From assembly GCA_964643955.1 (NCBI GenBank), contig CAZXUO010000003.1, forward strand, positions 19,865 to 83,864: 64,000 nucleotides of DNA, in the 5' to 3' direction. The DNA is from an uncultured Candidatus Saccharibacteria bacterium (GTDB lineage: Bacteria > Patescibacteriota > Minisyncoccia > Phycocordibacterales > UBA918). Made by a program: the position numbers and the translations under genes. Below are positions 5,384-62,485 of the stretch, piece after piece (position 1 is the first letter of the stretch; every line of letters begins with the position of its first letter). Below the pieces are notes generated by a model. That model was not told where the DNA came from and did no database searches. It saw only the letters and a list, made by a program, of their open reading frames with translations.

Positions 5384-5427
5384 AAACACACCTCTCGCGC
5401 TATGCGCGAGAGGTGTGTTTATTTTTG
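5384..5427 (+). terminator. Rho-independent terminator
   Basis: Perfect 17-bp inverted repeat aaacacacctctcgcgc / gcgcgagaggtgtgttt followed by ATTTTTG. Confidence 0.7.
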
Positions 5428-5441
5428 CTATACTGCTCTCC

Positions 5442-6320
5442 ATGAAGCCGGAAGACGTACAGAAACGTGTAGCGGAAATTGAGGCGGCAATGCTTGCGCC
5501 GGATTTTTGGAATGATTCTCGAAAAGCACAAGCACTCATTAAAGAGCTTCAAGAACTCAAGGAGCAAGCTGCTGGAAAAGGAAAATATGATCGCAACAAC
5601 GCGATTGTGACTATTGTGGCCGGCGCCGGTGGCGATGATGCCGAAGATTTTGCGCGCATGCTCGTGGAGATGTATCAGCGGTACGCTGAGGGGCGCAACT
5701 GGAGCGTCGGCATACTTGATGAAAATAGGAATGATCACAATGGGTATCGAAACATCGTACTAGAGATTGCAGGGAAGAATGCGTACGGGACATTGAAGCG
5801 TGAGTCGGGTGTGCATCGCCTCGTGCGCATGTCGCCATTTAATGCGTCGGGCAAACGGCAAACATCGTTTGTATTGGTCGAAGTGTCGCCAAAATTTGAA
5901 TCGCAAGAGGCTGCGGTTTTGAATGAAGATGATCTTGAGGTGTCATTTGCACGCTCGGGTGGCGCGGGCGGCCAAAATGTAAACAAACGTGAGACAGCGG
6001 TACGTATCGTACACAAGCCGACCAATATTTCTGTGAATGTTTCCTCTGAACGGAGCCAACAGCAGAATAAAGAGCGCGCGCTCGCGCTCATCGCGGGCAA
6101 GCTCTATGCTTTCGAGGAGGCGCAGCGCGCGCGTGAACAGCAGGGTCTTGCCGTGGAAAAGAGCGTAAAAATCGAATGGGGAAGCCAAATACGTTCGTAT
6201 GTCCTCCACCCATATCAGCTTGTAAAAGATCATCGTACCGACGTCGAGGTCCGTGATACGGATCGGGTGCTCGGAGGAGATATTTCGATGTTCCTCGACG
6301 CAGAAGCGCAGGTGGAGTAA
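5442..6320 (+). CDS. prfB: Peptide chain release factor 2, short form with a truncated N-terminal domain 1 and no programmed +1 frameshift
   Basis: SPF tripeptide ('[15 protein letters not shown]') and GGQ motif ('[18 protein letters not shown]'). '[24 protein letters not shown]' matches the RF2 domain-2 start. The ATG at 5442 is preferred over the tool's GTG at 5415, which lies inside the terminator hairpin. Confidence 0.85.
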
Positions 6321-6349
6321 AATAGTCAGGTTACAAGGTGTGCACGTTT

Positions 6350-7033
6350 ATGATCTATTTCGACAACGTATCAAAGGTATACAACAATAGAGGATCCGTG
6401 GCACTTGAAGATGTCACGTTCCAAGTTGCACCGGGTGAATTTGTCTCCATTGTCGGTCATTCAGGAGCGGGAAAGACGACGCTCATAAAGATGCTTATCG
6501 TTGAAGATCGTCCGACGTCCGGCACGGTCTTTTTTGAGTCGCTCGATGTGCACAGTATTCCGCACGGTCGTCTTCCACAGTATCGTCGCAAGATTGGTAC
6601 GGTCTTTCAGGATTTCAAACTGCTCCCGCACAAGACGGCGTATGAAAATATCGCATTTGCCATGGAGGCAAATGGTCGCACAGAAGAGGAGATTATAGAA
6701 AATGTGCCGCAGGCACTTGAGCTCGTCGATCTTGCCGACAAGATGGATAATTTCCCCGGAGAGCTCTCAGGTGGCGAGAAGCAGCGGGTCGCCATCGCGC
6801 GCGCGATCGTCAATCAGCCCGAGCTCATCATCGCCGACGAGCCGACCGGCAACCTTGATCCGATCGCAACGTACGAGGTGGTGCAGATTTTGAAGAAGAT
6901 CAATGATCTCGGCACGACTGTCATTATGACGACGCACAATAAAGGGGTGATTGACGCACTCGGACGCCGCGTGATCACGATGGATGGAGGTCGAATTGTT
7001 CGCGATGACAATGAGGGCCGGTACGTGCTTTAA
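6350..7033 (+). CDS. ftsE: Cell-division ABC ATPase FtsE
   Basis: Walker A 'GHSGAGKTT', signature 'LSGGEKQRVAIARA', Walker B 'LIIADEPTGNLD'. Conserved pairing with the downstream ftsX. Confidence 0.85.
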   Translation: MIYFDNVSKVYNNRGSVALEDVTFQVAPGEFVSIVGHSGAGKTTLIKMLIVEDRPTSGTVFFESLDVHSIPHGRLPQYRRKIGTVFQDFKLLPHKTAYENIAFAMEANGRTEEEIIENVPQALELVDLADKMDNFPGELSGGEKQRVAIARAIVNQPELIIADEPTGNLDPIATYEVVQILKKINDLGTTVIMTTHNKGVIDALGRRVITMDGGRIVRDDNEGRYVL

Positions 7034-7990: not shown

Positions 7991-9673
7991 ATGGCGCGCG
8001 CACAACGAACGACACGGAGCACCAACAAACACAGGAAATACATCTTCATCGTCGGCGGTGTCATGTCGGGAGTCGGCAAAGGTATTGCCGCTTCTTCTAT
8101 TGCGCATATCCTTCAGGCGCGCGGGCTTGTCGTGACGGCGATGAAGATCGATCCGTATATCAACGTGGACGCAGGTACGATGAATCCGACCGAGCACGGA
8201 GAAGTGTTTGTGCTTAAGGATGGCCTCGAGACGGATCAGGACATGGGTAACTATGAGCGTTTTCTCAATATCGACATTCCGAGCGCCAACTACATGACGA
8301 CCGGCAGCGTGTACCAGGAAGTCATCCGTCGTGAACGCAACCTCGAGTACGGAGGCAAGAATGTGGAGGTAGTACCCGATATTCCGCTTGAAGTTATCCG
8401 TCGCATCACAAAGGCGGGCGAGCTCGCGAAGGCACATGTGGTGATCACCGAGATCGGCGGCACCGTCGGTGAGTATCAAAATATTCTTTTCCTCGAGGCG
8501 GTCCGTATGATGAAGAGTCGTGCGCCGCAGAGTGTCGCCACGGTGCTCGTGAGCTACTTGCCGGTGCCGGGTTCGATCGGTGAGATGAAAACCAAGCCGA
8601 CGCAGTATGCGGCGCGTACGCTCAATAGCGCGGGTGTTTTTGCAGATGTGATCATCGCGCGCGCACCTGTCGCGATTGATCAGAAACGAAAAGAAAAAAT
8701 TGCGACGTTCTGCAACGTATCACCGGAGCATGTGATTGCTGCGCCTGATGTTGCAAGTATCTACGATGTGCCGATTAATTTTGAAAAAGACAATCTCTCG
8801 AAAAAACTCTGCGATCTGCTTTCGATAAAGAAGTGTAAAGGTACGGCGGATCTTGCTCCGTGGAAATCGTTTGTTGCGAAGTCAAAGAATACAAAGGGAA
8901 GCGTGAAGATCGCCGTGGTAGGGAAGTATTTTGATTCAGGTGACTTCGTCCTCTCGGACGTGTATATCTCAGTACTTGAGGCCATCAAGTCTGCGGCGTA
9001 CCACGAAGGGGTGAAGCCTGAGATTGACTACCTCTCGTCGGTGAAATTTGAAAAAGGATTGATGCCACTCTCGACACTCGACCATTACGACGGGGTACTT
9101 ATTCCTGGCGGATTCGGTTCAACGGGTATTGAGGGAAAAATAAAAGTGATTGAGTATGTGCGAAAGAAAAAGATTCCATACTTCGGCATTTGCTACGGCA
9201 TGCAGCTTGCGGTCGTTGAGTATGCGCGCAATATGTTGGGACTGAAGGGAGCATCGACTGGTGAGATTGATCCGAAGTCAAAGTATCTCGTGGTGGATGT
9301 GATGCTCGAACAAAAAGAGAAGATCGCAAAGAATGAGATGGGAGGTACGATGCGACTCGGTGAATATCCCGCGCATCTTGCAAAAGGAAGTATCGCCCGC
9401 GCGGCGTACGGAAAGGATGTCATCATTGAGCGCCACCGTCATCGCTATGAGGTGAATCCCGAGTATGTCGAGCGCCTCCGCGCGGGCGGCGCCATTTTCT
9501 CAGGCACCTCTCCAGATGGTCGTCTCATGGAAATCATGGAGCTCCCAAAAGAAAAACACCCATTTTTTGTAGGTGTCCAGTTTCATCCAGAATTTCACGC
9601 GCGACCACTTGCTCCGCATCCGATCTTTCGAGCGTTCATAGAAGCGTCGAAGAAAAACAGGAAAGTTAAATAG
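7991..9673 (+). CDS. pyrG: CTP synthase
   Basis: 'KYIFIVGGVMSGVGKGIAASS' N-terminal synthetase motif. C-terminal class-I glutamine amidotransferase 'GILIPGGFG…GICYGMQ' with the catalytic Cys. 560 aa. Confidence 0.95.
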   Translation: MARAQRTTRSTNKHRKYIFIVGGVMSGVGKGIAASSIAHILQARGLVVTAMKIDPYINVDAGTMNPTEHGEVFVLKDGLETDQDMGNYERFLNIDIPSANYMTTGSVYQEVIRRERNLEYGGKNVEVVPDIPLEVIRRITKAGELAKAHVVITEIGGTVGEYQNILFLEAVRMMKSRAPQSVATVLVSYLPVPGSIGEMKTKPTQYAARTLNSAGVFADVIIARAPVAIDQKRKEKIATFCNVSPEHVIAAPDVASIYDVPINFEKDNLSKKLCDLLSIKKCKGTADLAPWKSFVAKSKNTKGSVKIAVVGKYFDSGDFVLSDVYISVLEAIKSAAYHEGVKPEIDYLSSVKFEKGLMPLSTLDHYDGVLIPGGFGSTGIEGKIKVIEYVRKKKIPYFGICYGMQLAVVEYARNMLGLKGASTGEIDPKSKYLVVDVMLEQKEKIAKNEMGGTMRLGEYPAHLAKGSIARAAYGKDVIIERHRHRYEVNPEYVERLRAGGAIFSGTSPDGRLMEIMELPKEKHPFFVGVQFHPEFHARPLAPHPIFRAFIEASKKNRKVK

Positions 9674-9677
9674 AAAA

Positions 9678-9702
9678 GGTCGCCGCGCGAACGCGCGGCG
9701 AC
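9678..9702. terminator. Bidirectional GC hairpin terminator between pyrG (+) and a small minus-strand gene
   Basis: gtcgccgcgcg-aac-gcgcggcgac; flanked by A-run on the plus side and T-run on the minus side. Confidence 0.6.
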
Positions 9703-9713
9703 CAAGGCGCCGG

Positions 9714-9914
9714 TCATGCCGGTGCTCGCTCCTGCTCGACGAGACGGGGACTGGTCGAGCTGGTCGACATTCCCGCGTCGTGTGCCGGCTTGAAGGCATG
9801 GTCCCCCATCAGGCGCGGGAGCGTGTCGTGCTCCTCGCTCGTCCGGCCGCAGATGGCGCCTGTCTTCGGGTCGCGGTGCTGGCAGAGCTGTCCTCTCATG
9901 GCACTCTCCATCAT
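9714..9914 (-). CDS. Small hypothetical protein (66 aa) inside a ~63%-GC islet
   Basis: Own −10 (TATACT) and a GGAGA Shine-Dalgarno 6 nt before the ATG on the minus strand. Terminated by the bidirectional hairpin. Local GC is well above the ~50% window average. Confidence 0.4.
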   Translation of the reverse strand: MMESAMRGQLCQHRDPKTGAICGRTSEEHDTLPRLMGDHAFKPAHDAGMSTSSTSPRLVEQERAPA

Positions 9915-10017
9915 TCAGCTGGCGATAGTATGCCACATTTTCGCCAGCGCGCCATATGTTTGAGTGGAGCGCATTTTGATGTATTCTGAAGCCGTGGCAT
10001 TTTGCCATATATTTCAT

Positions 10018-10088
10018 TGCGGGATCGTCTAATGGTAGGACACTGGGTTTTGGTCCCAGGTATCTAGGTTCGAGTCCTAGTCCCGCAG
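10018..10088 (+). tRNA. tRNA-Gln (anticodon UUG)
   Basis: Acceptor tgcggga/tcccgca; D-arm gtct-aatggta-ggac; anticodon stem ctggg/cccag with loop ttTTGgt; T-arm ctagg-ttcgagt-cctag. No CCA. Confidence 0.8.
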
Positions 10089-10236
10089 CAGTCATGTGAG
10101 ATAGACTGAGACACCTAAACCAGTCATATTTCTCAAAGTATTTTTTGAACGAGTCATGGACACGAACCCTCATTATTTTCCTTGAAATTAAAACATCCAT
10201 ATTTCAAGGCGTTCTCTAGGTTCGTGCCCTAGAGAC
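10085..10236 (+). repeat. Repeat copy A: 75-bp core (10085–10159) abutting the tRNA-Gln 3' end, followed by a degenerate duplicate of the tRNA T-arm (ctctaggttcgtgccctagag, 10214–10236)
   Basis: Core gcagcagtcatgtgagatagactgagacAcctaaaCcagtcatatttctcaaagtattttttgaacgagtcatgg is 73/75 identical to copy B. Flanks ggttcgagtcc / ggacacgaacc are inverted. Confidence 0.7.
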
Positions 10237-10327
10237 TTTTTATCTTGCGACAGAAGCGATCCGTTTATCCGATAAATTTGAATTATTTTATTTATCGCGT
10301 CCATACTTCTGTTACAATTATTCGGTC

Positions 10328-12412
10328 ATGGAACTTTTTTCATACATGGGGCTGCACACAGCCTATCTATTTATCTTTTCGATTGGGCTAGCGCTTGGCA
10401 TTGGCGCGTCAGCTCTGAGTTACGCACTCTTTCTATTTGCAGGGCGAGACGGGCGCATATCGAAGGATGAGTTGGCTCTACTTTCGCTTTCTCGCAAGAC
10501 GGTATGGACTGCGTTTCTTTTGTATGGATTTAGTGGTATAGGGCTTTTCTCGCTCGCCTATGAATCAATGCTCTCTCTCGGCATCTTTTACGCAAGTATG
10601 ACGGTCGCGGCAATTCTTGTCGCGACCGAGCTTGCGTTTAGCTTCCGACATTTACCACGCGTACGGGATACGCGAGATGGAAGCGTGGCTCTTGATGCGT
10701 TCCTTCTCGAGAGCGGAGTCATCTCTGTCATTTCGTGGGTATTTCTTATGTTCCATCACGTAATCTATCGGACCGACATTGGCTATTTTGCGTTCATGGC
10801 TCTCTACACGGGCGCGCTTGCATTCGGGATGCTTGTTACGTGGGTAATCAGGCGCACGTCCATTCGTAGAAGCGATACGAAGATACTGAAGCGATCCATG
10901 ATTGCCGCGATTATGCTCGCGATCTGCTTTGGTGCCGCGTGGTTATTGGGTATCAGTACAATTGTCGATCCAGCGCAGATTGGAAAGGGTATCGTGCAGA
11001 ATGTAACTGGTACGAATTATACTGTTGACGACGTAGCACTCCACAACAACTCAGAGGACTGCTGGCTCATTATTGACGGCAAGGTATTCAATGCGACCGA
11101 GGCTTCAAAGCTGCACCCAGCCATGTTTGCGTGTGGTACTGATGTGAGCCTTAATTACCACAAGAATCACGGAGAGATTATTCGTGACAAGATGATGAAG
11201 TTCTATATCGGTGAACTTGGGGACGAGACCGGTGTTAAAAATGTTGACATTCCCTTTAAAAAACATGAGAACTTGAAGCCCTATCGCGAGCTGTATGCAA
11301 AGGAAGGTACGTGGGATCCCCATAATCTGATGCTCGTTGTTGAGAAAGATGAGGAAAAGCTCTTGGCGATAGATGGGTCGACGCATGAACTAGTCGGCCG
11401 GATCCATGAAGTTGGATTTCAGCCGCACACCTCGGTTTTCTCGTCGGATGCCGTATACATGTTCATCATCTCTCGCGACGGCTGGCTCACTAAGATCGAC
11501 CTTCGAACGCTCGAGCTGGTACGGACGGTGCATGTTGGGGAGAACTCGCGCGGCACCGCTCTTACGGATAATGACAAGTACGTCGCAATTGGAAACTACG
11601 CTCCGGGCAACCTGGTCATTCTCGACGCTGACACTATGGAGATGAAAAAGACTATACCCCTTGTCGAAGAGGTGAATGGAAAGGCCATTGAATCGCGCGC
11701 GGGCGCAGTCGTAGAGGATGGCAATCGCATTATCGTAGCACTAAAAGACGCTACGAGTGTCTGGGCGATTGATACAGACAATCCAGATTTCCCCGTCACA
11801 CATAAATTTAGAGACATTGGAGATAATGTCCCCGCACTGCACGATGCGTTTCTAACGCCAGGAGGATCGCACTACATAGTCGCCTCCCAAGGATCAAAGA
11901 CTGCATGGGTTCTCGATCTTGCGACTATGAAGCCGATTGCTGAAGTGGAGACTGGAGAGACGCCGCACACGGGTCCTGGAGCCGCGTGGGGTAACTACAT
12001 CTACATTCCTTCGCTTGGAGAAGGTCTCATCACCGTCATTGATACGACTACCTGGAAGACAGCCAAGTACATAAAGACAGGTGGCCCGGGGTTATTTGTG
12101 CGCAGCTACAGCAAGGATCCGTCGTATCCGTATGTATGGGCAGATACAGCATTTGGCGACCGCAAGGATGAGATATACGTTATCGATGGGCGAGTGAATG
12201 AGATAGTAAAGACCATCATTCCCGTGAAGGGAGAGAGCTCATGGCACCCAGAATTTACGTACGATGGAAAATTCGTGTACGTTGTCTCACCTTCGGCAAA
12301 TGAAGTTGAAGTATATGATGCGTACACGTTTGAGTTGATAAAACGCATTCCATCACAGATGCCATCAGCTATATCGAATGTGGGCCTTCGTATTGAGGAG
12401 CCGGGACTCTAA
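10328..12412 (+). CDS. Membrane-anchored cytochrome b5-like / cd1-nitrite-reductase-type (NirS/NirN/NirF-like) d1 beta-propeller fusion protein
   Basis: ~215-aa N-terminal multi-TM region. Then a cyt-b5-like heme domain ('LHNNSEDCWLIIDGKVFNATEASKLHPAMFACG', both axial His positions present). Then ~390 aa that align by eye to the NirS d1 domain ('FIISRDGWLTKIDL', 'YVAIGNYAPGNLVILDADTME', 'ETGETPHTGPGAAWGNYIY', 'GGPGLFVRSYSKDPSYPYVWADTAF'). Extended −10 TGTTACAAT lies 9 nt before the ATG. Confidence 0.6.
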   Translation: MELFSYMGLHTAYLFIFSIGLALGIGASALSYALFLFAGRDGRISKDELALLSLSRKTVWTAFLLYGFSGIGLFSLAYESMLSLGIFYASMTVAAILVATELAFSFRHLPRVRDTRDGSVALDAFLLESGVISVISWVFLMFHHVIYRTDIGYFAFMALYTGALAFGMLVTWVIRRTSIRRSDTKILKRSMIAAIMLAICFGAAWLLGISTIVDPAQIGKGIVQNVTGTNYTVDDVALHNNSEDCWLIIDGKVFNATEASKLHPAMFACGTDVSLNYHKNHGEIIRDKMMKFYIGELGDETGVKNVDIPFKKHENLKPYRELYAKEGTWDPHNLMLVVEKDEEKLLAIDGSTHELVGRIHEVGFQPHTSVFSSDAVYMFIISRDGWLTKIDLRTLELVRTVHVGENSRGTALTDNDKYVAIGNYAPGNLVILDADTMEMKKTIPLVEEVNGKAIESRAGAVVEDGNRIIVALKDATSVWAIDTDNPDFPVTHKFRDIGDNVPALHDAFLTPGGSHYIVASQGSKTAWVLDLATMKPIAEVETGETPHTGPGAAWGNYIYIPSLGEGLITVIDTTTWKTAKYIKTGGPGLFVRSYSKDPSYPYVWADTAFGDRKDEIYVIDGRVNEIVKTIIPVKGESSWHPEFTYDGKFVYVVSPSANEVEVYDAYTFELIKRIPSQMPSAISNVGLRIEEPGL

Positions 12413-12439: not shown

Positions 12440-12595
12440 GGTTCTAGACCGAGACGGTTTCGAGTCCCTGTCGGGCAGCAGTCATGTGAGATAGACTGAG
12501 ACGCCTAAATCAGTCATATTTCTCAAAGTATTTTTTGAACGAGTCATGGGCTCGAACCGTCTCGGGAGGGTGTCCTAGACGGGTCGTAAAATGAT
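12440..12595 (+). repeat. Repeat copy B: 75-bp core (12475–12549) enclosed by ~17-bp inverted flanks (ccgagacggtttcgagtcc / ggctcgaaccgtctcgg)
   Basis: Core is 97% identical to copy A. Flanks contain the T-loop-like 'ttcgagtcc' and 'tctagac' motifs. Confidence 0.7.
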
Positions 12596-12606
12596 ACGAT
12601 GTAGTT

Positions 12607-13638
12607 ATGCAAAAGCTTTCTAAATTATCAAAGGGAGACAAAGTGGCGATTCTTTCGCCAAGCTTTGCTGCGCCGGGTCGTTTCCCTGAAGTCTACAAAC
12701 TCGGATTGGAACGATTGCAGCAGGTTTTCGGACTCGTACCAGTTGAGTATCCAACTACAGCGAAACTCGGGGCTTCCGCTGAAGATAGAACCGCTGATCT
12801 CATTGAGGCTTTCGAAGACCCAGAAATCAAAGCCGTGATCGCAACTATTGGCGGCAACGACCAAGTTACCTATGTAAAAAATCTTCCACCAGAACCTTTC
12901 GTACAGAATCCAAAGTCTTTCTTTGGCTATAGTGACAACTCGCACCTTGCAAACTTCCTCTTCTTGAACGGCATTCCGTCATACTACGGCGGTTCAATTT
13001 TCACTCAATACGCTATGCAGGGTGAAATGGATGACTTTACTGTCGAATATCTTAAGCATGCTCTCTTTGACGAAGGAGAATTTGAACTCAAGGCATCCGA
13101 AACATACAACGACATGGGATTGAGTTGGGATGATTCTTCACTTCTTAAAACCAAGCGTCAGCACTGGCCGAACGAAGGCATGGTCTGGGACGGATCAGTT
13201 AATACCGAAGGATTGCTTTGGGGTGGCTGTGTTGAATCGGTCGATGAGATGTTACGTCATGGAGTGCCGATTCCGAGCCTCGAACAGTTTGAGAAAATCG
13301 TGTTAATGCTTGAGACCTCTGAAGAGATACCAAGTGCGGACTACGTATTCCGCGTTATGCGTGCGCTAGGTGAGCGCGGCATACTGGGACGGGTTCAAGG
13401 TGTCCTGATAGGACGAGCGAAAGCTTGGGAATTCGATAAGCCCAATTCATCAGAAGCAAAGACGGCGTACTGCAAAGAACAGCAGGAGACAATTCTTAAG
13501 GCAGTACGTTCGTATAACAAGACTGTTCCAGTGCTTCAGAACATGAATTTCGGACATACTGATCCTCAAATACCAATGCCGTACGGCGGTAAAGTACGAA
13601 TTGAGGGCGTAAATAAAAGGATCTTTTCCAGTTTCTAA
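12607..13638 (+). CDS. LD-carboxypeptidase (peptidase S66, LdcA/MccF-like)
   Basis: N-terminal 'GDKVAILSPSFAAP…TADLIEAFEDPEIKAVIATIGG' matches the S66 family signature; 343 aa. Confidence 0.7.
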   Translation: MQKLSKLSKGDKVAILSPSFAAPGRFPEVYKLGLERLQQVFGLVPVEYPTTAKLGASAEDRTADLIEAFEDPEIKAVIATIGGNDQVTYVKNLPPEPFVQNPKSFFGYSDNSHLANFLFLNGIPSYYGGSIFTQYAMQGEMDDFTVEYLKHALFDEGEFELKASETYNDMGLSWDDSSLLKTKRQHWPNEGMVWDGSVNTEGLLWGGCVESVDEMLRHGVPIPSLEQFEKIVLMLETSEEIPSADYVFRVMRALGERGILGRVQGVLIGRAKAWEFDKPNSSEAKTAYCKEQQETILKAVRSYNKTVPVLQNMNFGHTDPQIPMPYGGKVRIEGVNKRIFSSF

Positions 13639-53103: not shown

Positions 53104-53115
53104 AATGGTTATTTT

Positions 53116-53136: not shown

Positions 53137-53151
53137 TGATATACTACTCCT

Positions 53152-53589
53152 ATGAAACGCACAAGTATAACGGAAGCCCGTGCGAGCGCTGAAATACTGC
53201 TCGCCGAACGTGGACTGAAGCGCACGAGCACCCGGGTGCACGTCCTTGCGGAGCTCATGCGCGCGCATGAGCCGCTTTCGATTGATGTGCTCACAAAGCG
53301 CGTTCCTGATGTACACATGGTGACGCTCTACCGGATGCTTGAGCGATTTGTCGAAGAAGGAATTGTCTATCAGACGGATTTTAGAAATGGAAAGGCGTGG
53401 TTTGAGTTTCAGCCACATCACCACCATCACATTACCTGCACGGGATGTGGTCGCACCGAAGATATCGATATCTGCATAAAAAAAGAAGAGGAAAATGCGC
53501 TCCGTGCATCGCGCCATTTCACGTCGGTCAAAAGCCACATCCTCGAATTCTTTGGTCGGTGCCGTACGTGCAAAACCTTATCAACTTGA
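53152..53589 (+). CDS. zur: Fur-family metalloregulator (likely Zur)
   Basis: Winged helix, 'HHHHITCTGCG…CRTCK' metal sites. Divergent from the ZIP transporter gene. Confidence 0.75.
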   Translation: MKRTSITEARASAEILLAERGLKRTSTRVHVLAELMRAHEPLSIDVLTKRVPDVHMVTLYRMLERFVEEGIVYQTDFRNGKAWFEFQPHHHHHITCTGCGRTEDIDICIKKEEENALRASRHFTSVKSHILEFFGRCRTCKTLST

Positions 53590-53598
53590 TAGGATGGG

Positions 53599-54726: not shown

Positions 54727-54777
54727 CGCGAAGAGACGGGTAGTGTCTAATGGCAGTCTTGTTCTTGTGGGGAGGTA

Positions 54778-55131
54778 GTGATGACGCAATCGATTCTGAG
54801 GATTCCGCCGCAGTCCGAAGTGCTGCTGCGTCGACCGCGGTTTCGGGTAGTGCGCTTCTTCGAGCTGCTCTTCACTCAGAATGTGCTCCATGTGTTGGAG
54901 CACGAGTTGGGTGTTCGGCCAGGGTCTTTCCAAGAACTCAAGTTTGCAGAGGAGCGGGATGACCGGCCCTCTGACTTCCCTGATATCATCATCGTCGCGC
55001 TCGGAGGGACCTATACGAAGAGTGGTCGCACGTACGTTCCGGTATGGAGGCCGGCAAGTGGTGCGCCAATCGAGTTCGTGCGCGACTATGGCGCTGCGTG
55101 GCCGGCGGACACTCGCTTCATTCTTCGGTAA
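54778..55131 (+). CDS. Hypothetical protein
   Basis: 117-aa ORF followed by a strong hairpin terminator. The large overlapping minus-strand ORF is Arg-rich antisense junk. Confidence 0.35.
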   Translation: MMTQSILRIPPQSEVLLRRPRFRVVRFFELLFTQNVLHVLEHELGVRPGSFQELKFAEERDDRPSDFPDIIIVALGGTYTKSGRTYVPVWRPASGAPIEFVRDYGAAWPADTRFILR

Positions 55132-55157
55132 GCCGCACTTTGCGGCGAGAGTTGGTT

Positions 55158-55190
55158 GGCCCGCGCGCTTGCGCGCGGGCCTTTTTCTAT
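55158..55190 (+). terminator. Rho-independent terminator
   Basis: ggcccgcgcgc-ttg-cgcgcgggcc followed by TTTTTCTAT. Confidence 0.7.
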
Positions 55191-55228
55191 GCTCGCGCAC
55201 CAAGATACGAGTGTTATACTAGCCCTAT

Positions 55229-55603
55229 ATGTCACATGGAAAAATCGTGATGCTCGGCATCGCATTCGTCGTCATTATCTTTGTTGGGTTTGGGATTTGG
55301 AATCGTACAACTCCCGGGAAATACGATACGTTTGCACAGTGCATCAGTGATGCAGGCGCGACCTTTTACGGCGCGTTTTGGTGTCCTCACTGCCAGGATC
55401 AGAAGTCGATGTTCGGACGTTCTGCTGAAAAACTTCCGTACAAAGAATGTTCGACACCAAATGGTCAAGATCAAGTTGCAGAATGTGATGAGGCTGGTGT
55501 AACTGGTTATCCAACATGGTTCTTCTCAAACGGTGAGAAGCTCGAAGGAATTCAAGAGTTCTCAACGCTTTCTGAAAAGACTGGTTGTGCGCTTCCTGTA
55601 TGA
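55229..55603 (+). CDS. Membrane-anchored thioredoxin-fold oxidoreductase (DsbA/BdbD-like, CPHC)
   Basis: TM then 'GAFWCPHCQDQ'. TGTTATACT lies 9 nt before the ATG. The stop overlaps the dsbB start. Confidence 0.65.
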   Translation: MSHGKIVMLGIAFVVIIFVGFGIWNRTTPGKYDTFAQCISDAGATFYGAFWCPHCQDQKSMFGRSAEKLPYKECSTPNGQDQVAECDEAGVTGYPTWFFSNGEKLEGIQEFSTLSEKTGCALPV

Positions 55604-56148
55604 TCCCACTCGAGACACTGAACTATTGGCTTGCGCTGGGAGCAATCGTACTCCAGCTCGTGACGCTCTATATCCTTGTCGAACATTTCTTTCTTAAAGA
55701 AAAGTACGTAACACCGTACCTTCATCGATTTGGATTGCATATCGTTTTTCTCGTGAGTGCCGCTGCAGCGCTGCTCACCCTCGTGTATTCGGAAGTCTTC
55801 GGTTTTATTCCTTGTGGACTTTGTTGGATGGAGCGCGTGTTCCTGTATCCTATTGCGATCATCTCGCTTGTTGCGCTCTACAAGCTGCGTCACGGCGCAC
55901 GTGATACTGCTGTTGCAGATTACGGCATAGCGCTTTCGGGTATCGGTGCAGTCATTGCGACATACCACCATTACCTCCAGATGGGTGGCAGTGCACTCAT
56001 CGCGTGTCCGACTGCAGGCGAAGGTGTTGATTGTGCAAAACGTGTCATCTTCGAATTTGGCTATGTGACGTTTCCGCTCATGGCTGCGATTGTCTTTGCG
56101 TTCATCATTATGACGCTCCTCGTGTATCGTACGGGTTCGCGTACCTAA
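55600..56148 (+). CDS. dsbB: Disulfide bond formation protein B (DsbB/BdbC family)
   Basis: Four TM helices. First-loop 'PCGLCWMERVFLYP' Cys pair and second-loop Cys pair 'ACPTAGEGVDC'. Confidence 0.7.
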   Translation: MIPLETLNYWLALGAIVLQLVTLYILVEHFFLKEKYVTPYLHRFGLHIVFLVSAAAALLTLVYSEVFGFIPCGLCWMERVFLYPIAIISLVALYKLRHGARDTAVADYGIALSGIGAVIATYHHYLQMGGSALIACPTAGEGVDCAKRVIFEFGYVTFPLMAAIVFAFIIMTLLVYRTGSRT

Positions 56149-56153
56149 CACTC

Positions 56154-56873
56154 ATGCGCACACTTGTTTTTGACATCGAGACGATTGGTGAAGAATGGGA
56201 TACGCTCGATGAGACAACGCAGCACGTGCTCACGCGCTGGATTGATCGCAACATAAAAAGCGAAGAGGAACGGGCTGCGGAACTTACTGACCTGAAAGAG
56301 GGACTCGGTTTTTCTCCACTTACCGGCTCTATCGTCGCGATTGGTTTGCATGACCTCGAGCAGGGGAAGAATGTCGTGTACTACCAAGCGCCCGGCGCGT
56401 CGGGTGAGATTGTCGATGGATCGACGACACTCAAAGTACGAAGTGAGCGTGATATGCTCGCAGACTTTTGGGCTGGCGCAAAAGCGTATGATACATTCGT
56501 GACATTTAATGGTCGGGGTTTTGATGTGCCGTTTCTTTTGCTTCGCTCGGCGATCTTGGGCGTCGCACCGACTCGTGATCTGATGGATGGTCGGTATCTT
56601 TATCAGCAGAAGGGCGCAAAGCATGTTGATCTTGCGGACCAGCTCTCTTTTTATGGTGCGGTCTTTCGCAAAGCGTCGCTCCATCTGTACTGCCGCGCAT
56701 TTGGCATCGAGAGCCCAAAAGCTGCGGGCGTGACCGGAGATGATGTTTCCGCACTTTTTCGAGAAGGGAAGTATGAGGATATTGCACGCTATAACGTACG
56801 AGACATTATTGCGACTGCCGAACTATACGAGCGGTGGCGTACGTACCTCGCGCCGTCGGCATTTCGGCCGTAG
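56154..56873 (+). CDS. RNase-H-like 3'-5' exonuclease-domain protein (YprB/PolB-exo-like)
   Basis: 'LVFDIETIG' Exo-I motif and later 'FNGRGFDVPFL'. Start at the ATG after the dsbB stop. Confidence 0.55.
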   Translation: MRTLVFDIETIGEEWDTLDETTQHVLTRWIDRNIKSEEERAAELTDLKEGLGFSPLTGSIVAIGLHDLEQGKNVVYYQAPGASGEIVDGSTTLKVRSERDMLADFWAGAKAYDTFVTFNGRGFDVPFLLLRSAILGVAPTRDLMDGRYLYQQKGAKHVDLADQLSFYGAVFRKASLHLYCRAFGIESPKAAGVTGDDVSALFREGKYEDIARYNVRDIIATAELYERWRTYLAPSAFRP

Positions 56874-56894
56874 CTCGTCTGGTATACTTTTCTC

Positions 56895-58130
56895 ATGTCA
56901 GAACCGAAAGAATTAACCTTCCCCGAAGGATTTTACTGGGGTGCGGCGTCCGCGTCGTACCAAGTTGAAGGTGGTATCGAAGATGTCGACTGGGCGCAAG
57001 CTGCACGCGAAGGAAAAGTGCCGCCGTGTGGACGTGCATGTGATCACTACAATCGCTTTGAAGAAGATTTTGACCTTGCAAAAGAGATCGGACACAACTG
57101 CCACCGTATTTCAATCGAGTGGGCGCGTATCGAACCTGAAGAAGGAAAATTTAATGAAGCGGAGATTGAACACTATCGTAAAGTGCTTGCAGCACTCCGT
57201 GCGCGCAGATTGAAGCCGTTTATTACGCTCTGGCACTTCACGCTCCCGCAGTGGTTTGCGGATAAAGGTGGTTTCCTCCATCCGGACGCGCCAGAGATTT
57301 TTGCGCGCTATTGTGGGTATGTGGCGAAGAAGCTTGGTAATGATTGTCGGCATTTCTCGACCATCAATGAACCAACAGTGTATGCCTCGCTCGGATGGCT
57401 CGCGGGAGTGTGGCCGCCGTTCCGACGATGGACAGGATTTAGTATCTTTAAACGCACACATCATCGCCAAGCGGTCCCCGGACAGAAACTTTCGTTTTGG
57501 CATATCTTCCAGTATCGAAAGGTTGTACGTCAGCTTGTACGTGCACACAATCTCGCATACGACGCGATCAAGCGTTCTGCCTTTGGTGCGGAAGTGGGCA
57601 TTGTGCATCACGTCGTGCTTTTCCATGCAAATGGCAATCCGATCAACAAGCTTCGAGCAGTGGTGATGAATCGGCTTTCAACACACAGCTTGATCAGACA
57701 GGTCTACAAGAAGTGTGATTCGATCGGCGTCAATTATTATCAGCACAAAAAATTCGGTGATCGTGCGACGTATCAGAAGACCGATATGGGCTGGGATGTG
57801 TATCCTGAAGGGCTTTGTAATGCACTCCTCATGCTTCGTCGGTACAAGAAGCCGCTCTGGGTTTCAGAAGCTGGTATTGCCGATGAAAAAGATACGATGC
57901 GTGCTGACTACATTACGCGGCTCATTCGCTGCATGCATGTCGCAATCCAAAAGGGAGCCGACGTGCGCGGATACATGTATTGGTCGCTTCTTGATAACTA
58001 TGAGTGGGCGCAAGGTTTTGAAAAACGCTTCGGACTGATTACCATCAATTACGAGACGCTCGAGCGTACAGTTCGTCCGTCTGCGTACGTGTATAAAGAG
58101 ATCATTCTGCGGAACGCAGTGCTAAAATAA
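56895..58130 (+). CDS. Glycoside hydrolase family 1 (beta-glucosidase/galactosidase)
   Basis: 'FPEGFYWGAASASYQVEGG' N-terminal signature; 'TINEP' acid/base and 'VSEAGIA' nucleophile regions. TGGTATACT lies 7 nt before the ATG. Confidence 0.85.
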   Translation: MSEPKELTFPEGFYWGAASASYQVEGGIEDVDWAQAAREGKVPPCGRACDHYNRFEEDFDLAKEIGHNCHRISIEWARIEPEEGKFNEAEIEHYRKVLAALRARRLKPFITLWHFTLPQWFADKGGFLHPDAPEIFARYCGYVAKKLGNDCRHFSTINEPTVYASLGWLAGVWPPFRRWTGFSIFKRTHHRQAVPGQKLSFWHIFQYRKVVRQLVRAHNLAYDAIKRSAFGAEVGIVHHVVLFHANGNPINKLRAVVMNRLSTHSLIRQVYKKCDSIGVNYYQHKKFGDRATYQKTDMGWDVYPEGLCNALLMLRRYKKPLWVSEAGIADEKDTMRADYITRLIRCMHVAIQKGADVRGYMYWSLLDNYEWAQGFEKRFGLITINYETLERTVRPSAYVYKEIILRNAVLK

Positions 58131-58134
58131 GTAC

Positions 58135-59073
58135 ATGGCAGTTTGGATCATACTTGCAGTCGCCGCGCAGATCATGCACGCGATTGTCGCACTTCTCGAT
58201 AAGTACATCGTGACGTCAAAAAACGTGCTCCCGCAGCCGTTTGTGTACGCATTCTATATGTGCGTGCTTTCTGCAGCGTCAATCGGCGTCTATGCGTTTA
58301 CGTGGGTACCGGTGCCGCTTGAAGGTGTCGCATTTCCAAGTCTTGCAAATGTCGGCTTTCCTTCGCTCACGGTCGTCGCGCTCTCAATGCTTGCTGCATA
58401 CACATTTTTCTATGCGCTCGTCTCGATGTTTACAGCGCTCCAAGAAGCCGATGCGTCAGACGTCGTACCAGTCGTGGGTGCCGTCTCTGCAGTGAGCTCG
58501 TACGGTCTTGCGTATCTCTTTTTGGATGCAGCACTCTCGCACAATTTTCTCTTTGGCGTACTCTTGCTCGCTGCGGGTACGGCATTTGTTTCGCGCATGC
58601 GCTTCTCATGGAAGACAGCGCTCCTCTCGGTGCATGCGGGCGTATTTTTTGCATTCCACTACGTCGTCATCAAAGGGCTTTTCAACACCACTTCGTTTGA
58701 CGACGGCTTTTTCTGGAGTCGTGTCGGCTTCGTCGTGTTTGCACTCACGCTTCTGTTGGTGCCTGCCTACGCGATCAAGATTTTTGCGCAGACACGCGCG
58801 ACCGGAAAGCGCGCCGGCGCGCTCGTCTTGGTCAACAAAGTGATTGCAGGTTTTGCGTCGATCATGGTGCTCAAAGCAACTGAGCTTGGGGATGTGTCGG
58901 TTGTACAGGCGCTCGGTGGATTACAGTACGTCTTCATTTTTATTTTTAGTTTGCTTCTTGGTCCCTACGGTCCGAATATCTGTAGTGAAGGGAAGTGCAG
59001 TACGCGAGAAATCATACACAAGGCTGTCTTTATCGCAGTCATTACGCTCGGCTTCTTTATACTTTTCAAATAA
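58135..59073 (+). CDS. Polytopic membrane protein (DMT/EamA-like; function unknown)
   Basis: Eight to ten hydrophobic helices; 4 nt after the GH1 gene. Confidence 0.45.
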   Translation: MAVWIILAVAAQIMHAIVALLDKYIVTSKNVLPQPFVYAFYMCVLSAASIGVYAFTWVPVPLEGVAFPSLANVGFPSLTVVALSMLAAYTFFYALVSMFTALQEADASDVVPVVGAVSAVSSYGLAYLFLDAALSHNFLFGVLLLAAGTAFVSRMRFSWKTALLSVHAGVFFAFHYVVIKGLFNTTSFDDGFFWSRVGFVVFALTLLLVPAYAIKIFAQTRATGKRAGALVLVNKVIAGFASIMVLKATELGDVSVVQALGGLQYVFIFIFSLLLGPYGPNICSEGKCSTREIIHKAVFIAVITLGFFILFK

Positions 59074-60084
59074 ATGATACGGCGACACTGGAAAGCAATT
59101 ATTCTATGGATACTCGGAGTGCTCGCCGTGTGTGCACTCGCGGTGCTTTTCCTCTTGCAAAAAGAGGTGCCTGAGACGATTACCTACGGCATGTCATTTA
59201 ATACGCCATACGTCGAGGAGCTCGGTCTCAACATGGAAGAGACGTACACGGCAATTCTCTCAGATCTCGGCGTACGACACCTCAGGCTTGCAGCGCATTG
59301 GACTATGATTGAGGAAAATCGAGATGCGTATGATTTTGCTGCCCTTGATTATCAAATCGAGCAGGCAAAAGTGTACGGAGCTGACGTCATTCTCGGCGTA
59401 GGGCGTCGGCTTCCGCGATGGCCAGAATGCCATGTGCCAGGATGGGCGCGCGAGCTCTCGTGGGATGAGCAGAAGGAAGAAATTCGTGCGTACATCACCG
59501 CGGTTGTTGAGCGATACAAAGACGAACCGCACATCATTTACTGGCAGGTTGAAAATGAACCGTATCTTGAAGTGTTTGCGAATGAACATTGCGGAGATCT
59601 CGATGAGAATTTCTTGCGTGAGGAAATCGAGCTCGTGCGCTCACTCGATGGCTCGCGGCCAATACTCGTGACCGATAGCGGTAACCTCGGTACGTGGCGT
59701 GGCGCGTATTCTCTCGGTGATGTGTTCGGTACGAGCGTGTACGTGTATTTTTGGAATCACCACCTCGGACAGTTTCGGACTATTCTTCCGCCAGCATTTT
59801 ATCGGGTGAAAGAAAATCTCGTTTCACTTTTCTATGGAGAGAAACCGACAATCTTGATTGAACTTTCAGCTGAGCCATGGCTCCTTGAACCGGTGGTTGA
59901 TGTGCCGATCGAGACGCAGTTCACGCGTATGGATCCTGAAAAATTTGATTCTATTATTGAGTATGCAAAAGAGACGCGGTACGCACGGCAGTATCTGTGG
60001 GGCGTTGAGTGGTGGTATTGGTTGAAGAAAAACAATCATCCAGAAATGTGGGAGAAGGGAAAGGAGTTGTTTGAGAAGAAATAA
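59074..60084 (+). CDS. Membrane-anchored TIM-barrel glycoside hydrolase (GH5/cellulase-superfamily-like)
   Basis: TM, then 'WQVENEP' acid/base region and a downstream Glu nucleophile region. Start overlaps the previous stop (TAAATGA). Confidence 0.55.
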   Translation: MIRRHWKAIILWILGVLAVCALAVLFLLQKEVPETITYGMSFNTPYVEELGLNMEETYTAILSDLGVRHLRLAAHWTMIEENRDAYDFAALDYQIEQAKVYGADVILGVGRRLPRWPECHVPGWARELSWDEQKEEIRAYITAVVERYKDEPHIIYWQVENEPYLEVFANEHCGDLDENFLREEIELVRSLDGSRPILVTDSGNLGTWRGAYSLGDVFGTSVYVYFWNHHLGQFRTILPPAFYRVKENLVSLFYGEKPTILIELSAEPWLLEPVVDVPIETQFTRMDPEKFDSIIEYAKETRYARQYLWGVEWWYWLKKNNHPEMWEKGKELFEKK

Positions 60085-60086
60085 AA

Positions 60087-60117
60087 AACCGCCGGCACGC
60101 AAGCGTGCCGGCGTCAG
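60087..60117. terminator. Bidirectional hairpin terminator between convergent genes
   Basis: aaaaaac-cgccggcacg-caag-cgtgccggcg. Confidence 0.65.
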
Positions 60118-60633
60118 TCACCGAAGCGGAACATTACGGAATGGTCCGCGGTCTCCGATTTGTCCGCGGCCGATCTCCTTGATACGGATTTGTGATCCGT
60201 CATCGGCGAGACCGAAGAAACGGACCGGGTCCTTACCGAGGAGGACGCGAACGGGGCCGTCGAGCGGAATCTGCGAGATCCCGGCGCAGCCATCGGATGC
60301 AATCCATCCGATGTACCAGGTCTCCCGTCGCAACTTCGCGTGTGGCTCGAGCACGACGTAGTCGCGCCACCCACCGAAGATCGGCATGTGGAAGATCGGG
60401 ATGATCCTCCAGTTGAATCGTGCGGCTGCTGTCGGAATGCCTTCGTAGTAGAGCATGCCGACCTCGCGAAGGAAGGACGCCTCACCCGCGAGCAACTTCT
60501 GGTTGTTCCAGAAGTGGGTCCGCTGCGGCGCTGGCTCAAACATGTAGAGGACATACATGATCGGCCATATGAGTGTATCCGCGATTTTCGCCCCTCGTCC
60601 GAGAGGCTGAATCACGAGCCGATTTTTGGCCAT
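60118..60633 (-). CDS. Hypothetical protein in a GC-elevated (~58–60%) segment
   Basis: 171-aa ORF with codon usage rich in CCG/GCG/CGC, unlike its neighbours. No motif recognised. Confidence 0.4.
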   Translation of the reverse strand: MAKNRLVIQPLGRGAKIADTLIWPIMYVLYMFEPAPQRTHFWNNQKLLAGEASFLREVGMLYYEGIPTAAARFNWRIIPIFHMPIFGGWRDYVVLEPHAKLRRETWYIGWIASDGCAGISQIPLDGPVRVLLGKDPVRFFGLADDGSQIRIKEIGRGQIGDRGPFRNVPLR

Positions 60634-60766
60634 CGTCTCCTCCCGTTGAGGGTGTAGAGTCTATACTTATTATAGCATATTTATTTATAAAAGTCAATTG
60701 AGTGGTGTATTCATTTTTCTACATACTTCCGATAAAAAGCGCTGTAAAAAGGTATACTGAAACAAT

Positions 60767-61882
60767 ATGAAAAAGCTTCTTACGGTGAGCGCTGTAATCG
60801 CACTCATTCTTATCGTCTCTGTGCCGTTTACTATTGCTGCGTCTCCTGTCTTGCGAAGTGGTGAAGCAATCTCTATCACCGAATCACAAGAAGTGCTCGG
60901 AGATTTTTATGCTGCAGGTGGTACGGTCTCGATGTCAGGCGCTGTTGCGGGTGATCTCTATGCTGCAGGTGGTACTGTCGCGCTCGATGGCGAAGTTGCA
61001 GAAGATGTCGTCGTCTTTGGTGGTTCGGTACAGATTGCAGGCGCAGTGGGAGATGATGTGCGTGTCATAGGAGGCGAAGTGACGATTTCAGGAGAAGTTG
61101 AGGGAGACGTGCTCGTACTCGGTGGTATCGTCCGCATTCTTGAAACATCGCAGATACGTGGCGATGTACTTTTTCTTGGTGGAGAAGTGAGTATCGAGGG
61201 TACGGTGAATGGCTCGGTCACGGGTCGTGCTGAGGGTATTCGCATTGATGGTCCGGTGATGGGGGACGTGTCTATTACGAGTGCTCGCCCGCTCGAGCTT
61301 GGCGACCGTGCAAATATCGACGGCGATGTTGAGTATCGTAGTCTACAGGACGTCGTGCGCGCCCCCGGCTCGGTGGTTGCAGGTGACGTGACAAAGAAAG
61401 AGACGTCGGCAGCGATGGAGGCGTCTTCGTTTAGTATGCTTTCGCTCCTCATTCTTTTTTTCACGTCGCTCGTGTACCTCTTTTTGTTCAAGAAAAAGCT
61501 CGATCCATTTATGCGCGAGACGATGCACTCATTTGGCAAGCGTGGAGCTATTGGCCTCGCGACGATCGTCGCCGTACCGGTAGCAGTCGTGATCTTGATG
61601 ATTACCGTGATTGGTATGCCGATCGGTATCGCGCTCGCATCTGCGCTCACATTTCTCTCGGTCATCGCATGGTCGCTCGGCGGTATCTTTCTCGGTGTGG
61701 TCCTTGCGCGTCTGGTAGAAGGGCAGGCAACACTTACACTCAAGTGGACACTCGTCGGCACCCTCGTATTTGGACTGTTTTCGTACATACCATTTATCGG
61801 TGGACTTCTTATTGCCGTGGTGGTGCTGATCGTTTTGGGAAGCATGGTACGTACCATCTACATCCGTATTCGACGCGCATAG
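60767..61882 (+). CDS. Bactofilin-like (polymer-forming cytoskeletal repeat) protein with C-terminal four-TM domain
   Basis: Signal peptide, then ~200 aa of 'GDxxAAGGTVxxxGxVxGDV' beta-helix repeats, then four TM helices. Confidence 0.5.
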   Translation: MKKLLTVSAVIALILIVSVPFTIAASPVLRSGEAISITESQEVLGDFYAAGGTVSMSGAVAGDLYAAGGTVALDGEVAEDVVVFGGSVQIAGAVGDDVRVIGGEVTISGEVEGDVLVLGGIVRILETSQIRGDVLFLGGEVSIEGTVNGSVTGRAEGIRIDGPVMGDVSITSARPLELGDRANIDGDVEYRSLQDVVRAPGSVVAGDVTKKETSAAMEASSFSMLSLLILFFTSLVYLFLFKKKLDPFMRETMHSFGKRGAIGLATIVAVPVAVVILMITVIGMPIGIALASALTFLSVIAWSLGGIFLGVVLARLVEGQATLTLKWTLVGTLVFGLFSYIPFIGGLLIAVVVLIVLGSMVRTIYIRIRRA

Positions 61883-61903
61883 GGGTTGTGCTAAAATCTT
61901 CGC

Positions 61904-62485
61904 ATGGCTAAAAACACGAAGAAGAAAAAAGTTGCGAAGAAGGTTACAAAAAAGGCGGTAAAGAAAACAGCAAAAAAGGCGGCGTCGAAGAAAAAGAGCG
62001 CCCCAAAAGCTCCTAAACAAAAGGTGGTCATGGGGATGATGGCGCCTGACTTCACGCTTCCAGGAAGCGACGGCAAGGATCATACACTTTCTGCGCAGAA
62101 CGCATGGACGTTGATATATTTTTATCCAAAGGACAATACGCCGGGCTGTACGGTTGAGGCGGAAGTATTTCGTGATACGCACGCGGATTTCAAGAAGCGC
62201 AAGATCGCTGTGTGGGGTATCAGTACTGATTCGATGCCAAGCCATATCAAGTTCCGCGACAAGTTTAATTTGCCGTTCGTACTCCTTTCGGATGTCGACA
62301 AAAAAGTCGTGCGCGCCTATGGTGTGTGGGGAAAGAAGAAGTTTATGGGACGTGAGTACCTCGGTACATTTAGACACTCATTTCTCGTGCGTCCCGACGG
62401 CGCCGTATTCCGTACATATACCGACGTAAAGCCTGCACTCCACGCACGTGAAGTGCTTGCTGATTTTGACGCACAAGCTAAATAG
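61904..62485 (+). CDS. bcp: Thiol peroxidase Bcp/PrxQ, as annotated carrying a 40-aa Lys/Ala-rich histone-H1-like N-terminal tail (alternative start at 62030)
   Basis: 'APDFTLPGSDGKDHTL…IYFYPKDNTPGCTVEA' peroxiredoxin motif. N-terminal 'AKNTKKKKVAKKVTKKAVKKTAKKAASKKK'. An AAGGTGG Shine-Dalgarno-like string precedes the internal ATG. Confidence 0.75.
   Translation: MAKNTKKKKVAKKVTKKAVKKTAKKAASKKKSAPKAPKQKVVMGMMAPDFTLPGSDGKDHTLSAQNAWTLIYFYPKDNTPGCTVEAEVFRDTHADFKKRKIAVWGISTDSMPSHIKFRDKFNLPFVLLSDVDKKVVRAYGVWGKKKFMGREYLGTFRHSFLVRPDGAVFRTYTDVKPALHAREVLADFDAQAK

Follow-up and report, generated by a model that had tools for sequence, protein, structure and literature searches.

This study concerns a window of 64,000 nucleotides (nt), the whole stretch of DNA that was analysed, from an uncultured bacterium labelled Candidatus Saccharibacteria, and in particular a short promoter-like box, TGnTAnnnT, which is found immediately upstream of the ATG start codons of many of its genes. 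Judged from the sequence, the window very probably represents a case of widespread leaderless transcription of the type designated group C by GeneMarkS-2. Such a reading had been proposed in a preliminary description of the same DNA on the basis of ten genes, and all sequence-level tests agree with it, pointing to an extended -10 element that acts independently of a -35 element and to a transcription start that would fall on the AUG or 0–2 nt away from it.

The start survey comprised the window and nine related loci (L001–L008 and L068), which were obtained by searching species-representative genomes with the GH1 protein encoded in the window (56895–58130) and which carry the labels Candidatus Saccharibacteria (an automatic assignment), Kaiserbacteria, Paceibacterota and Parcubacteria group. 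The GH1 proteins of the relatives are 92% (L001), 77% (L002), 73% (L003 and L004), 70% (L008), 69% (L068) and about 62% (L005–L007) identical to that of the window, and L001 is collinear with positions 46979–63998 at about 79% nucleotide identity. The window has a GC content of about 49%, the majority of its genes lie on the + strand, and its source, judged from these relatives, is a bacterium of the Candidate Phyla Radiation (CPR)/Patescibacteria that is Parcubacteria/Paceibacteria-like. Genes were called as greedy longest open reading frames (ORFs) of at least 90 aa with the first ATG as the start, which gave 68 ORFs in the window and 144 in the relatives; three documented start corrections to the first-ATG rule led to the 67 ORFs used for the table of upstream contexts. 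A greedy shift of starts to any internal ATG or GTG preceded by a box or a Shine-Dalgarno (SD) sequence was discarded, as it moved starts implausibly far (from 10328 to 10796, for example).

In 20 of the 68 window ORFs, 6–8 nt separated a TAnnnT hexamer from the first ATG, compared with an expectation of about 3% (per-position frequency 0.011; binomial p = 6e-14), with 9, 4 and 7 ORFs at spacers of 6, 7 and 8 nt compared with about 1.5–2 ORFs at any other offset. The relatives gave the same picture, with 41 of 144 ORFs (29, 4 and 8 at spacers of 6, 7 and 8 nt; p = 2e-26), and the preferred spacer was exactly 6 nt, both among these 41 sites and among the TGn boxes of the window, where it was found in 10 of 15. 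The signal is also present when no gene calls are used at all: ATG followed TGnTAnnnT at exactly 6 nt in 10 of the 80 motifs on both strands of the window (about 1.5 expected, p = 3e-6) and in 26 of the 146 motifs of the nine relatives, and in both sets it was the commonest triplet at this position. For a control hexamer in which the final base is not T, ATG occurred at the same distance in 4 of 286 cases. The corresponding motif counts were 6 of 251 in more distant CPR loci, 7 of 575 in non-CPR bacteria and 18 of 890 in archaea; the box-to-ATG pattern is specific to the window and its close relatives and is absent from the other bacterial and archaeal loci and from the more distant CPR loci, the latter being a small sample; a breakdown by locus gives the same result. 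The single form TATACT has 23 copies on the + strand, which is rich in genes, compared with 5 on the - strand; of the 23, 10 or 11 are followed within 6–10 nt by an ATG that opens an ORF of at least 120 aa. When the codon 6 nt after TGnTAnnnT opens an ORF of at least 80 codons, it is ATG in 32 cases, GTG in 2 and TTG in none, a bias that leaderless initiation would be expected to produce. The question posed beforehand, whether the motif is any more frequent before starts than elsewhere, is answered by this strong enrichment before starts, and the original proposal stands.

With the corrected starts, the box was found at 6–8 nt in 22 of the 67 window ORFs, about one third, and in 18 of the 49 ORFs for which the upstream gap exceeds 12 nt or the neighbouring gene is on the opposite strand (the ORF at the window edge being counted in). 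Its distribution over the upstream contexts is as follows:

Same-strand gap of 13–40 nt: box in 7 of 12 ORFs
Same-strand gap of more than 40 nt: box in 7 of 22 ORFs
Same-strand gap of 12 nt or less: box in 4 of 18 ORFs
Neighbour on the other strand: box in 3 of 14 ORFs
Window edge: box in 1 of 1 ORF

The identity of the box can be read from a base profile that presupposes no motif. Among the 212 aligned starts of the window and the nine relatives, the frequencies relative to the ATG are 0.36 for T at -15, 0.32 for G at -14, 0.42 for T at -12, 0.43 for A at -11, 0.37 for A at -9 and 0.38 for T at -7, while G is depleted at the SD position. In the textbook numbering, the extended -10 promoter has TG at -15/-14 and TATAAT at -12 to -7 relative to the transcription start. 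Since the profile stands in exactly this sigma-70 register relative to the ATG, +1 would fall on the A of the ATG. The TG one base upstream of the hexamer is clearly favoured at the box sites: of 23 sites in the window, 15 have the T and 13 the G, and of 45 sites in the relatives, 27 have the T and 30 the G (1/16 expected for the pair). T1, A2 and T6 together with TG, with free middle bases, are the positions that sigma reads on DNA in sigma-70 promoters. For the best -35 match, the box sites had no advantage over TAnnnT sites picked at random (mean 2.52 versus 2.41, p = 0.2), and complete two-hexamer promoters were not enriched within 44–64 kb (14 found versus 18.5 expected); the boxes are therefore not classical two-hexamer promoters. 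At 5442 and 51743, the -35 position is occupied by the T-run of a terminator. The box is predicted to be recognised by the CPR sigma factor.

All ten start codons named in the preliminary description, and the hexamers upstream of them, are present in the sequence. One coordinate, that of TGCTATAGT, has to be moved by one, to 47747–47755 instead of 47748–47756. The spacers had been given as 6–9 nt, which applies with 9 nt at the NirS-like gene and 6–8 nt at the other nine. A TGn, claimed for every hexamer, does precede most of them, the exceptions being 45611, where the TG directly abuts the hexamer (TTG-TATACT), and 60767, which has AGG. The affected starts are more numerous than the original ten and include 784, 12607, 23542, 44384, 51743, 53103(-), 53602 and 58135, with weaker cases at 3942, 29618 and 59074. 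The sites are listed here with their span, strand, box, spacer and start codon:

769–786, +: TGC-TATGCT, 6 nt, ATG 784 of a 264-aa protein without a Pfam match; no upstream in-frame start
5382–5444, +: terminator hairpin 5382–5422 (19-bp stem, folding free energy -33.9 kcal/mol) with T-run, TGC-TATACT at 5426–5434, 7 nt, ATG 5442 of RF2 (prfB)
10310–10330, +: TGT-TACAAT, 9 nt, ATG 10328 of the cytochrome d1/NirS-like gene; the longest spacer among the ten sites first listed and thus possibly a leader of 2–3 nt
12592–12609, +: TGA-TACGAT, 6 nt, ATG 12607 of an LD-carboxypeptidase; Pfam domain from residue 13
23526–23544, +: TGG-TATAAT, 7 nt, ATG 23542 of a 637-aa LamG/PG-binding protein
28104–28121, +: TGC-TATACT, 6 nt (GCGCAT), ATG 28119 of a leucine-rich repeat (LRR) protein
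44370–44386, +: TATACT, 8 nt, ATG 44384 of a GH18 protein
45599–45613, +: TATACT, 6 nt, ATG 45611 of a DUF2177 protein; Pfam profile position 1 at residue 6
47747–47764, +: TGC-TATAGT, 6 nt (GCGCAT), ATG 47762; TGA-TATAGT, 6 nt, ATG in L001
51684–51745, +: terminator hairpin 51684–51720 (-24.6 kcal/mol) with T-run, TATACT(AT), 6–8 nt, ATG 51743; kept in L001
53104–53151, divergent: TAAAAT at 53111–53116 (-), 7 nt to ATG 53103 of a ZIP transporter gene; TGA-TATACT at 53137–53145 (+), 6 nt to ATG 53152 of zur
53587–53604, +: stop codon TGA of zur doubling as TGn, TAGGAT, 6 nt, ATG 53602 of a YibE/F-like protein; TGT-TAGGAT, 6 nt, ATG in L001
55212–55231, +: TGT-TATACT, 8 nt, ATG 55229 of a thioredoxin-like (dsbA-like) protein
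56880–56897, +: TGG-TATACT, 6 nt, ATG 56895 of GH1
58120–58137, +: TGC-TAAAAT, 6 nt, ATG 58135; box within the 3' end of the GH1 gene, its last T also serving as the first base of the stop codon TAA of GH1
59058–59076, +: TATACT, 10 nt (or TACTTT, 8 nt), ATG 59074 of a GH5/42-like protein; zero-nt gap to the upstream gene, a weaker case
60753–60769, +: TATACT, 8 nt, ATG 60767 of a bactofilin-domain protein; kept in L001
61889–61906, +: TGC-TAAAAT, 6 nt, ATG 61904 of AhpC/Bcp (bcp); an independent public gene call has the identical start
3942 and 29618: weaker sites, with TATTTT at 3942

The start codons at these sites are sound. An alternative in-frame start further upstream is absent at 10 of 17 sites, the proposed N-termini of GH1, DUF2177, Fur and LD-carboxypeptidase lie only a few residues ahead of the respective Pfam domains, and the GH1 relatives align from residue 1. 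The longer block said to be shared by two sites does exist as a 20-mer, TGCTATA(C/G)TGCGCATATGAA, at 28104–28123 and 47747–47766 (19 of 20 positions identical). It was considered as a separate element and rejected, as the encoded proteins are unrelated and the block consists mostly of the box, the ATG and a GC-rich GCGCAT spacer of a type common elsewhere; the likeness is treated as convergence or chance.

Comparison with L001 shows which parts of the arrangement are retained: the hexamer, the length of the spacer and the ATG are kept, and the sequence of the spacer and the DNA further upstream have changed. At 55229, the window has TGTTATACT-agccctat-ATG and L001 has TGCTATACT-tcaggcat-ATG, so that the length of 8 nt is kept with the letters replaced; at 53152, TGATATACT-actcct corresponds to TGGTATAGT-actttc, and at 61904, TGCTAAAAT-cttcgc corresponds to TGCTAGAAT-ttccgc. 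Over the window and all nine relatives, 8 of the 10 GH1 orthologues have a -10-like hexamer 5–9 nt before the ATG, and the 6-nt spacer of the promoter that follows GH1 (ATG 58135) is kept in L001, L003, L008, L068 and L007. Both promoters are retained over relatives with 62–92% protein identity. The distance from the terminator stem to the ATG is about 26 nt at 5442 and 51743, with a similar layout in several relatives, and since the terminators abut the box at both sites, there is no room for a leader. In the 48 bp that separate zur from the ZIP transporter gene, the two divergent boxes are accompanied by a conserved palindrome, ATGCAAATNATTTGCAT, which overlaps or abuts both of them and probably represents the Zur operator; L002 has a similar palindrome ahead of one of its genes (about 3722, - strand). 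Such cases illustrate the degree to which expression signals can be condensed in streamlined genomes, with terminator, -10 and ATG within about 26 nt in one case and 48 bp serving two divergent genes and a putative operator in the other.

Two sites show the box away from a start codon:

3265–3283, +: TATACT at 3265–3270, 13 nt before tRNA-Thr(cgt) at 3284–3357; box ahead of an untranslated gene
60634–60697, -: TTGACT-17-TGcTATAAT (TGCTATAAT), leader of about 30 nt, GGGAGGAG 4 nt before ATG 60633; a counter-example with a conventional SD-led mRNA

At the second of these, the box lies about 36 nt upstream of the conserved SD, and the leader has diverged in L001, with an indel and GTG as the start codon. 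The region 60118–60697 (-) contains the sole near-consensus two-hexamer promoter in 44–64 kb, which drives a 171-aa protein without a Pfam match. An Rfam scan of the window found three tRNAs only, and the nine related loci, checked for further tRNA-proximal boxes, contain no tRNA genes. At tRNA-Gln (10018–10089), a single case with a weak hexamer, only 6 nt (10012–10017) separate TGcCATATA from the mature 5' end, and transcription could start at the 5' end of the tRNA or very near it; the ORF at 9595–10200(-) that overlaps this tRNA is probably spurious.

SD sequences are scarce in the window. SD-like 4-mers (GGAG, GAGG or AGGA at -17 to -4) precede 7 of the 68 window ORFs (10%), compared with a background of 8% in random 14-mers and with 38–46% in Firmicute control loci processed identically. 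At the box genes, which the preliminary description had correctly given as lacking an SD, such a 4-mer was found in 1 of 23 sites in the window and 1 of 45 in the relatives. Genes without a box have one in 6 of 45 cases in the window and 16 of 99 in the relatives, with a weak peak at spacers of 6–8 nt in the latter, and a recognisable SD is present in only about 10–15% of them. The genome is SD-poor and not SD-free: SDs of the GGGAGG type are present at 60633(-), 54781 and 37536, and conserved strong SDs such as the one at 60633(-) suggest that the anti-SD still works in this lineage. No other upstream motif was found in the non-leaderless genes, just stop-codon and A/T-rich 4-mers and a weak excess of AGGA/AGGT. 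Many genes without a box lie 0–8 nt from the upstream stop codon or overlap it as ATGA, and these tight junctions are compatible with termination-reinitiation; further ones, typA among them, have short SD-less leaders. For typA/bipA (49825–49894), the predicted promoter TTGACG-17-TAAAGT is followed by a leader of about 32 nt, consisting of a GC hairpin and TTTTTATTTTCAT running into the ATG. Hairpin and U-tract are conserved, with compensatory changes in L001, and end 3 nt before the ATG, so that the leader looks like a terminator or attenuator, or like a U-rich SD-less leader.

The mechanism that we propose would start with the TGnTAnnnT boxes acting as extended -10 elements of the sigma-70 type that need no -35. 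As the box is located 6 nt, less often 7–8 nt, before the ATG, RNA polymerase should initiate on the A of this codon or 1–2 nt earlier, and the resulting mRNAs would have neither a 5' untranslated region (UTR) nor an SD. By analogy with characterised leaderless mRNAs, the ribosome and the initiator tRNA would then bind directly to the 5'-terminal AUG. Roughly one third of the ORFs would use this arrangement, with the promoters packed against the T-run of the preceding terminator or placed within the last codons or the stop codon of the upstream gene; the other genes would mostly be served by termination-reinitiation at junctions of 0–8 nt or by short SD-less leaders. Several points weigh against this reading. 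We infer the transcription start from promoter geometry only, and the pyrimidine at -1 that would be expected as a start-site signature does not discriminate, as it is equally common at box sites (43 of 58) and at other starts (105 of 154) and is therefore uninformative. The weak hexamers TATTTT (3942), TACCAT (35175) and TAAGGT (42213) are probably chance matches. Spacers of 8–10 nt, as at 10328, 44384, 55229, 59074 and 60767, may give leaders of 1–3 nt that are not strictly leaderless, and the crude gene calls (longest ORF, first ATG) make the leaderless fractions approximate.

The spacers of 8–11 nt at 10328 (9 nt), 44384, 55229 and 60767 (8 nt each), 59074 (10 nt) and 48325 (TATTGT, 11 nt), together with the fact that the choice of start site can vary by 1–2 nt, leave some room for a related explanation, in which the boxes are real promoters but transcription begins a few nt upstream of the AUG, so that the mRNAs would carry very short leaders of 2–6 nt, be translated in another way that needs no SD, and not be truly leaderless. 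We consider this unlikely, since the dominant spacer of exactly 6 nt puts the canonical +1 on the A of the ATG, and the motif-free profile stands in the same exact register. Still less probable is a role of the box in translation, as a non-SD ribosome-binding or translation-enhancer element within a longer leader that would be read by the ribosome or by S1 as in the Bacteroidota-type group B and would not be a promoter. The box does lie at a distance from the start codon typical of a ribosome-binding site, it also occurs before the tightly spaced downstream genes 53602, 58135 and 59074 (gaps of 12, 4 and 0 nt), and some other signal might be expected in an SD-poor genome. However, the conserved T1, A2, T6 and TG with a degenerate middle correspond to the pattern of DNA recognition by sigma-70 and not to a base-pairing motif, the box also precedes a tRNA gene and, in another case, lies well upstream of the start codon of an SD-led gene, and where terminator hairpins and T-runs lie directly upstream, no upstream transcript would carry it. 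In addition, ATG is nearly obligatory after the box, and the box is present at only about a third of the starts, being commonest at gaps of 13–40 nt and less common at those of up to 12 nt, whereas in group B genomes the motif stands before essentially all genes, whether first or internal, in leadered mRNAs.

The least credible explanation, that the pattern arises by chance or is produced artificially by AT-richness between genes and by wrongly assigned starts, is refuted by the statistics given above. It is true that TAnnnT is a loose motif, with 1,453 copies on both strands, and that a few of the listed hexamers are weak, but the enrichment is sharply positional and disappears with the control hexamer, on the opposite strand and in the other CPR, bacterial and archaeal loci analysed identically. 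Moreover, the box is conserved at orthologous sites, and the starts are backed by missing alternatives, by Pfam N-termini and by an independent gene call.

Leaderless mRNAs are an established feature of Actinobacteria, Deinococcus-Thermus and archaea. In the group C genomes, which are frequent in the two bacterial phyla, a Pribnow box lies 6–8 nt from the starts of a large part of the first genes of operons, these genes are leaderless and have no SD, and the predicted leaderless share amounts to 25–50% of the transcripts (PMC6028130). The window shows the same spacer distribution as group C representatives such as Mycobacterium tuberculosis and Deinococcus deserti, with the box at about 33% of its ORFs. 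It differs from them in belonging to a CPR/Patescibacteria lineage with a GC content of about 49% instead of a high one, in the frequent TGn, in the lack of a detectable -35, and in promoters that are merged with terminators or placed within the stop codons of upstream genes. The leadered genes of M. tuberculosis carry ribosome-binding sites of the SD type (PMC6028130), whereas the non-leaderless genes of the window are mostly without SD. The group C examples are leaderless transcriptomes, while the case presented here is known from sequence alone. Like extended -10 sigma-70 promoters, the boxes have the TG one base upstream of TAnnnT and require no -35 match; unlike such promoters in general, they would be the default promoter class for leaderless genes. 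The archaeal leaderless genomes (group D, for example haloarchaea) resemble the window in their high share of transcripts without a 5' UTR and in tightly packed downstream genes, but their promoter box lies about 26 nt upstream (PMC6028130) and not, as the bacterial -10 of the window, at -12 to -7. What sets this lineage apart is that its other genes are almost devoid of SDs, that TGn promoters lacking a -35 would be the standard class, and that promoters are packed extremely tightly against terminators and stop codons.

The paper that defines group C does not mention CPR (PMC6028130), and a full-text search of the literature found no paper that links leaderless mRNA with CPR/Patescibacteria; Nanosynbacter lyticus was the only CPR organism found cited with transcription start site data. 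Given the match to group C and the lack of a CPR report among the papers found, the window would therefore represent a new lineage for a known mechanism. Tsurumaki et al. found the anti-SD motif CCTCCT in only 48% of the 16S genes of Parcubacteria and left the mode of initiation open, and they described most CPR S1 proteins as having 3–4 domains, with leaderless mRNAs unmentioned (Tsurumaki et al., 2022; PMC9297842). The Parcubacteria subgroup that has lost the anti-SD falls in the same broad group of organisms as the window, whose SD-poor leaderless architecture is a plausible counterpart, although the conserved strong SDs suggest that the lineage of the window, unlike that subgroup, has kept its anti-SD. 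An architecture conserved across the lineage could offer a concrete answer, for at least one clade, to the question of how initiation proceeds in anti-SD-poor Parcubacteria. CPR bacteria are also known for their reduced ribosomes. A broader proposal, to which we give slightly less than even credence, is that a whole Parcubacteria-like CPR clade has largely given up SD-led initiation, with about half of its transcription units leaderless through -35-less extended -10 promoters that are fused to terminators or lie in upstream stop codons, and most others translated by reinitiation over 0–8 nt or from short SD-less leaders. If this is true, it would be the missing functional complement of the anti-SD loss reported for about half of the Parcubacteria, and gene callers trained on SDs would systematically misplace starts in such genomes. 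Automated callers do seem to miss leaderless starts in this lineage, and the -10 box may serve to place start codons in genomes of this kind. In a further locus, L080 (3548–3600, about 860 nt past the right end of the window), the public call of a PspC-domain gene begins 12 codons downstream of a start with the arrangement TGCTAAAGT-6 nt-ATG, and the upstream start encodes the typical N-terminus MKKRLYRS....

Some further features of the window were observed. RF2 (prfB, 5442–6320) is short, at 292 aa; it retains the SPF and GGQ motifs but lacks about 70 residues of the N-terminal domain 1 compared with solved RF2 structures. The gene has no programmed +1 frameshift and begins, directly after the terminator, roughly at the position of the classical frameshift site. 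In the region 3633–3775, TGCTATGCT (3633–3641) is followed by a hairpin of about 80 nt (3691–3768), the end of which, CCCCTTTT, immediately adjoins tRNA-Thr(ggt) at 3776. The segment 3668–3775 folds with -43 kcal/mol (z = -3.5), the hairpin region 3633–3775 had no Rfam match even at E ≤ 1, and it could represent a small RNA of unknown kind or a leader structure of the tRNA. Unusual for a CPR genome are a cytochrome d1 (NirS-like) protein with a cytochrome b5-like domain (10328–12412), a multicopper oxidase (18392–19612) and a B12-dependent class II ribonucleotide reductase (15617–17956), the gene of which adjoins that of a cobalamin adenosyltransferase. The nearest homologues of GH1 (56895–58130) outside the CPR relatives, with about 26–33% identity, are largely archaeal (Thermoproteota, Nitrososphaeria), which suggests an unusual evolutionary history of this glycosidase.

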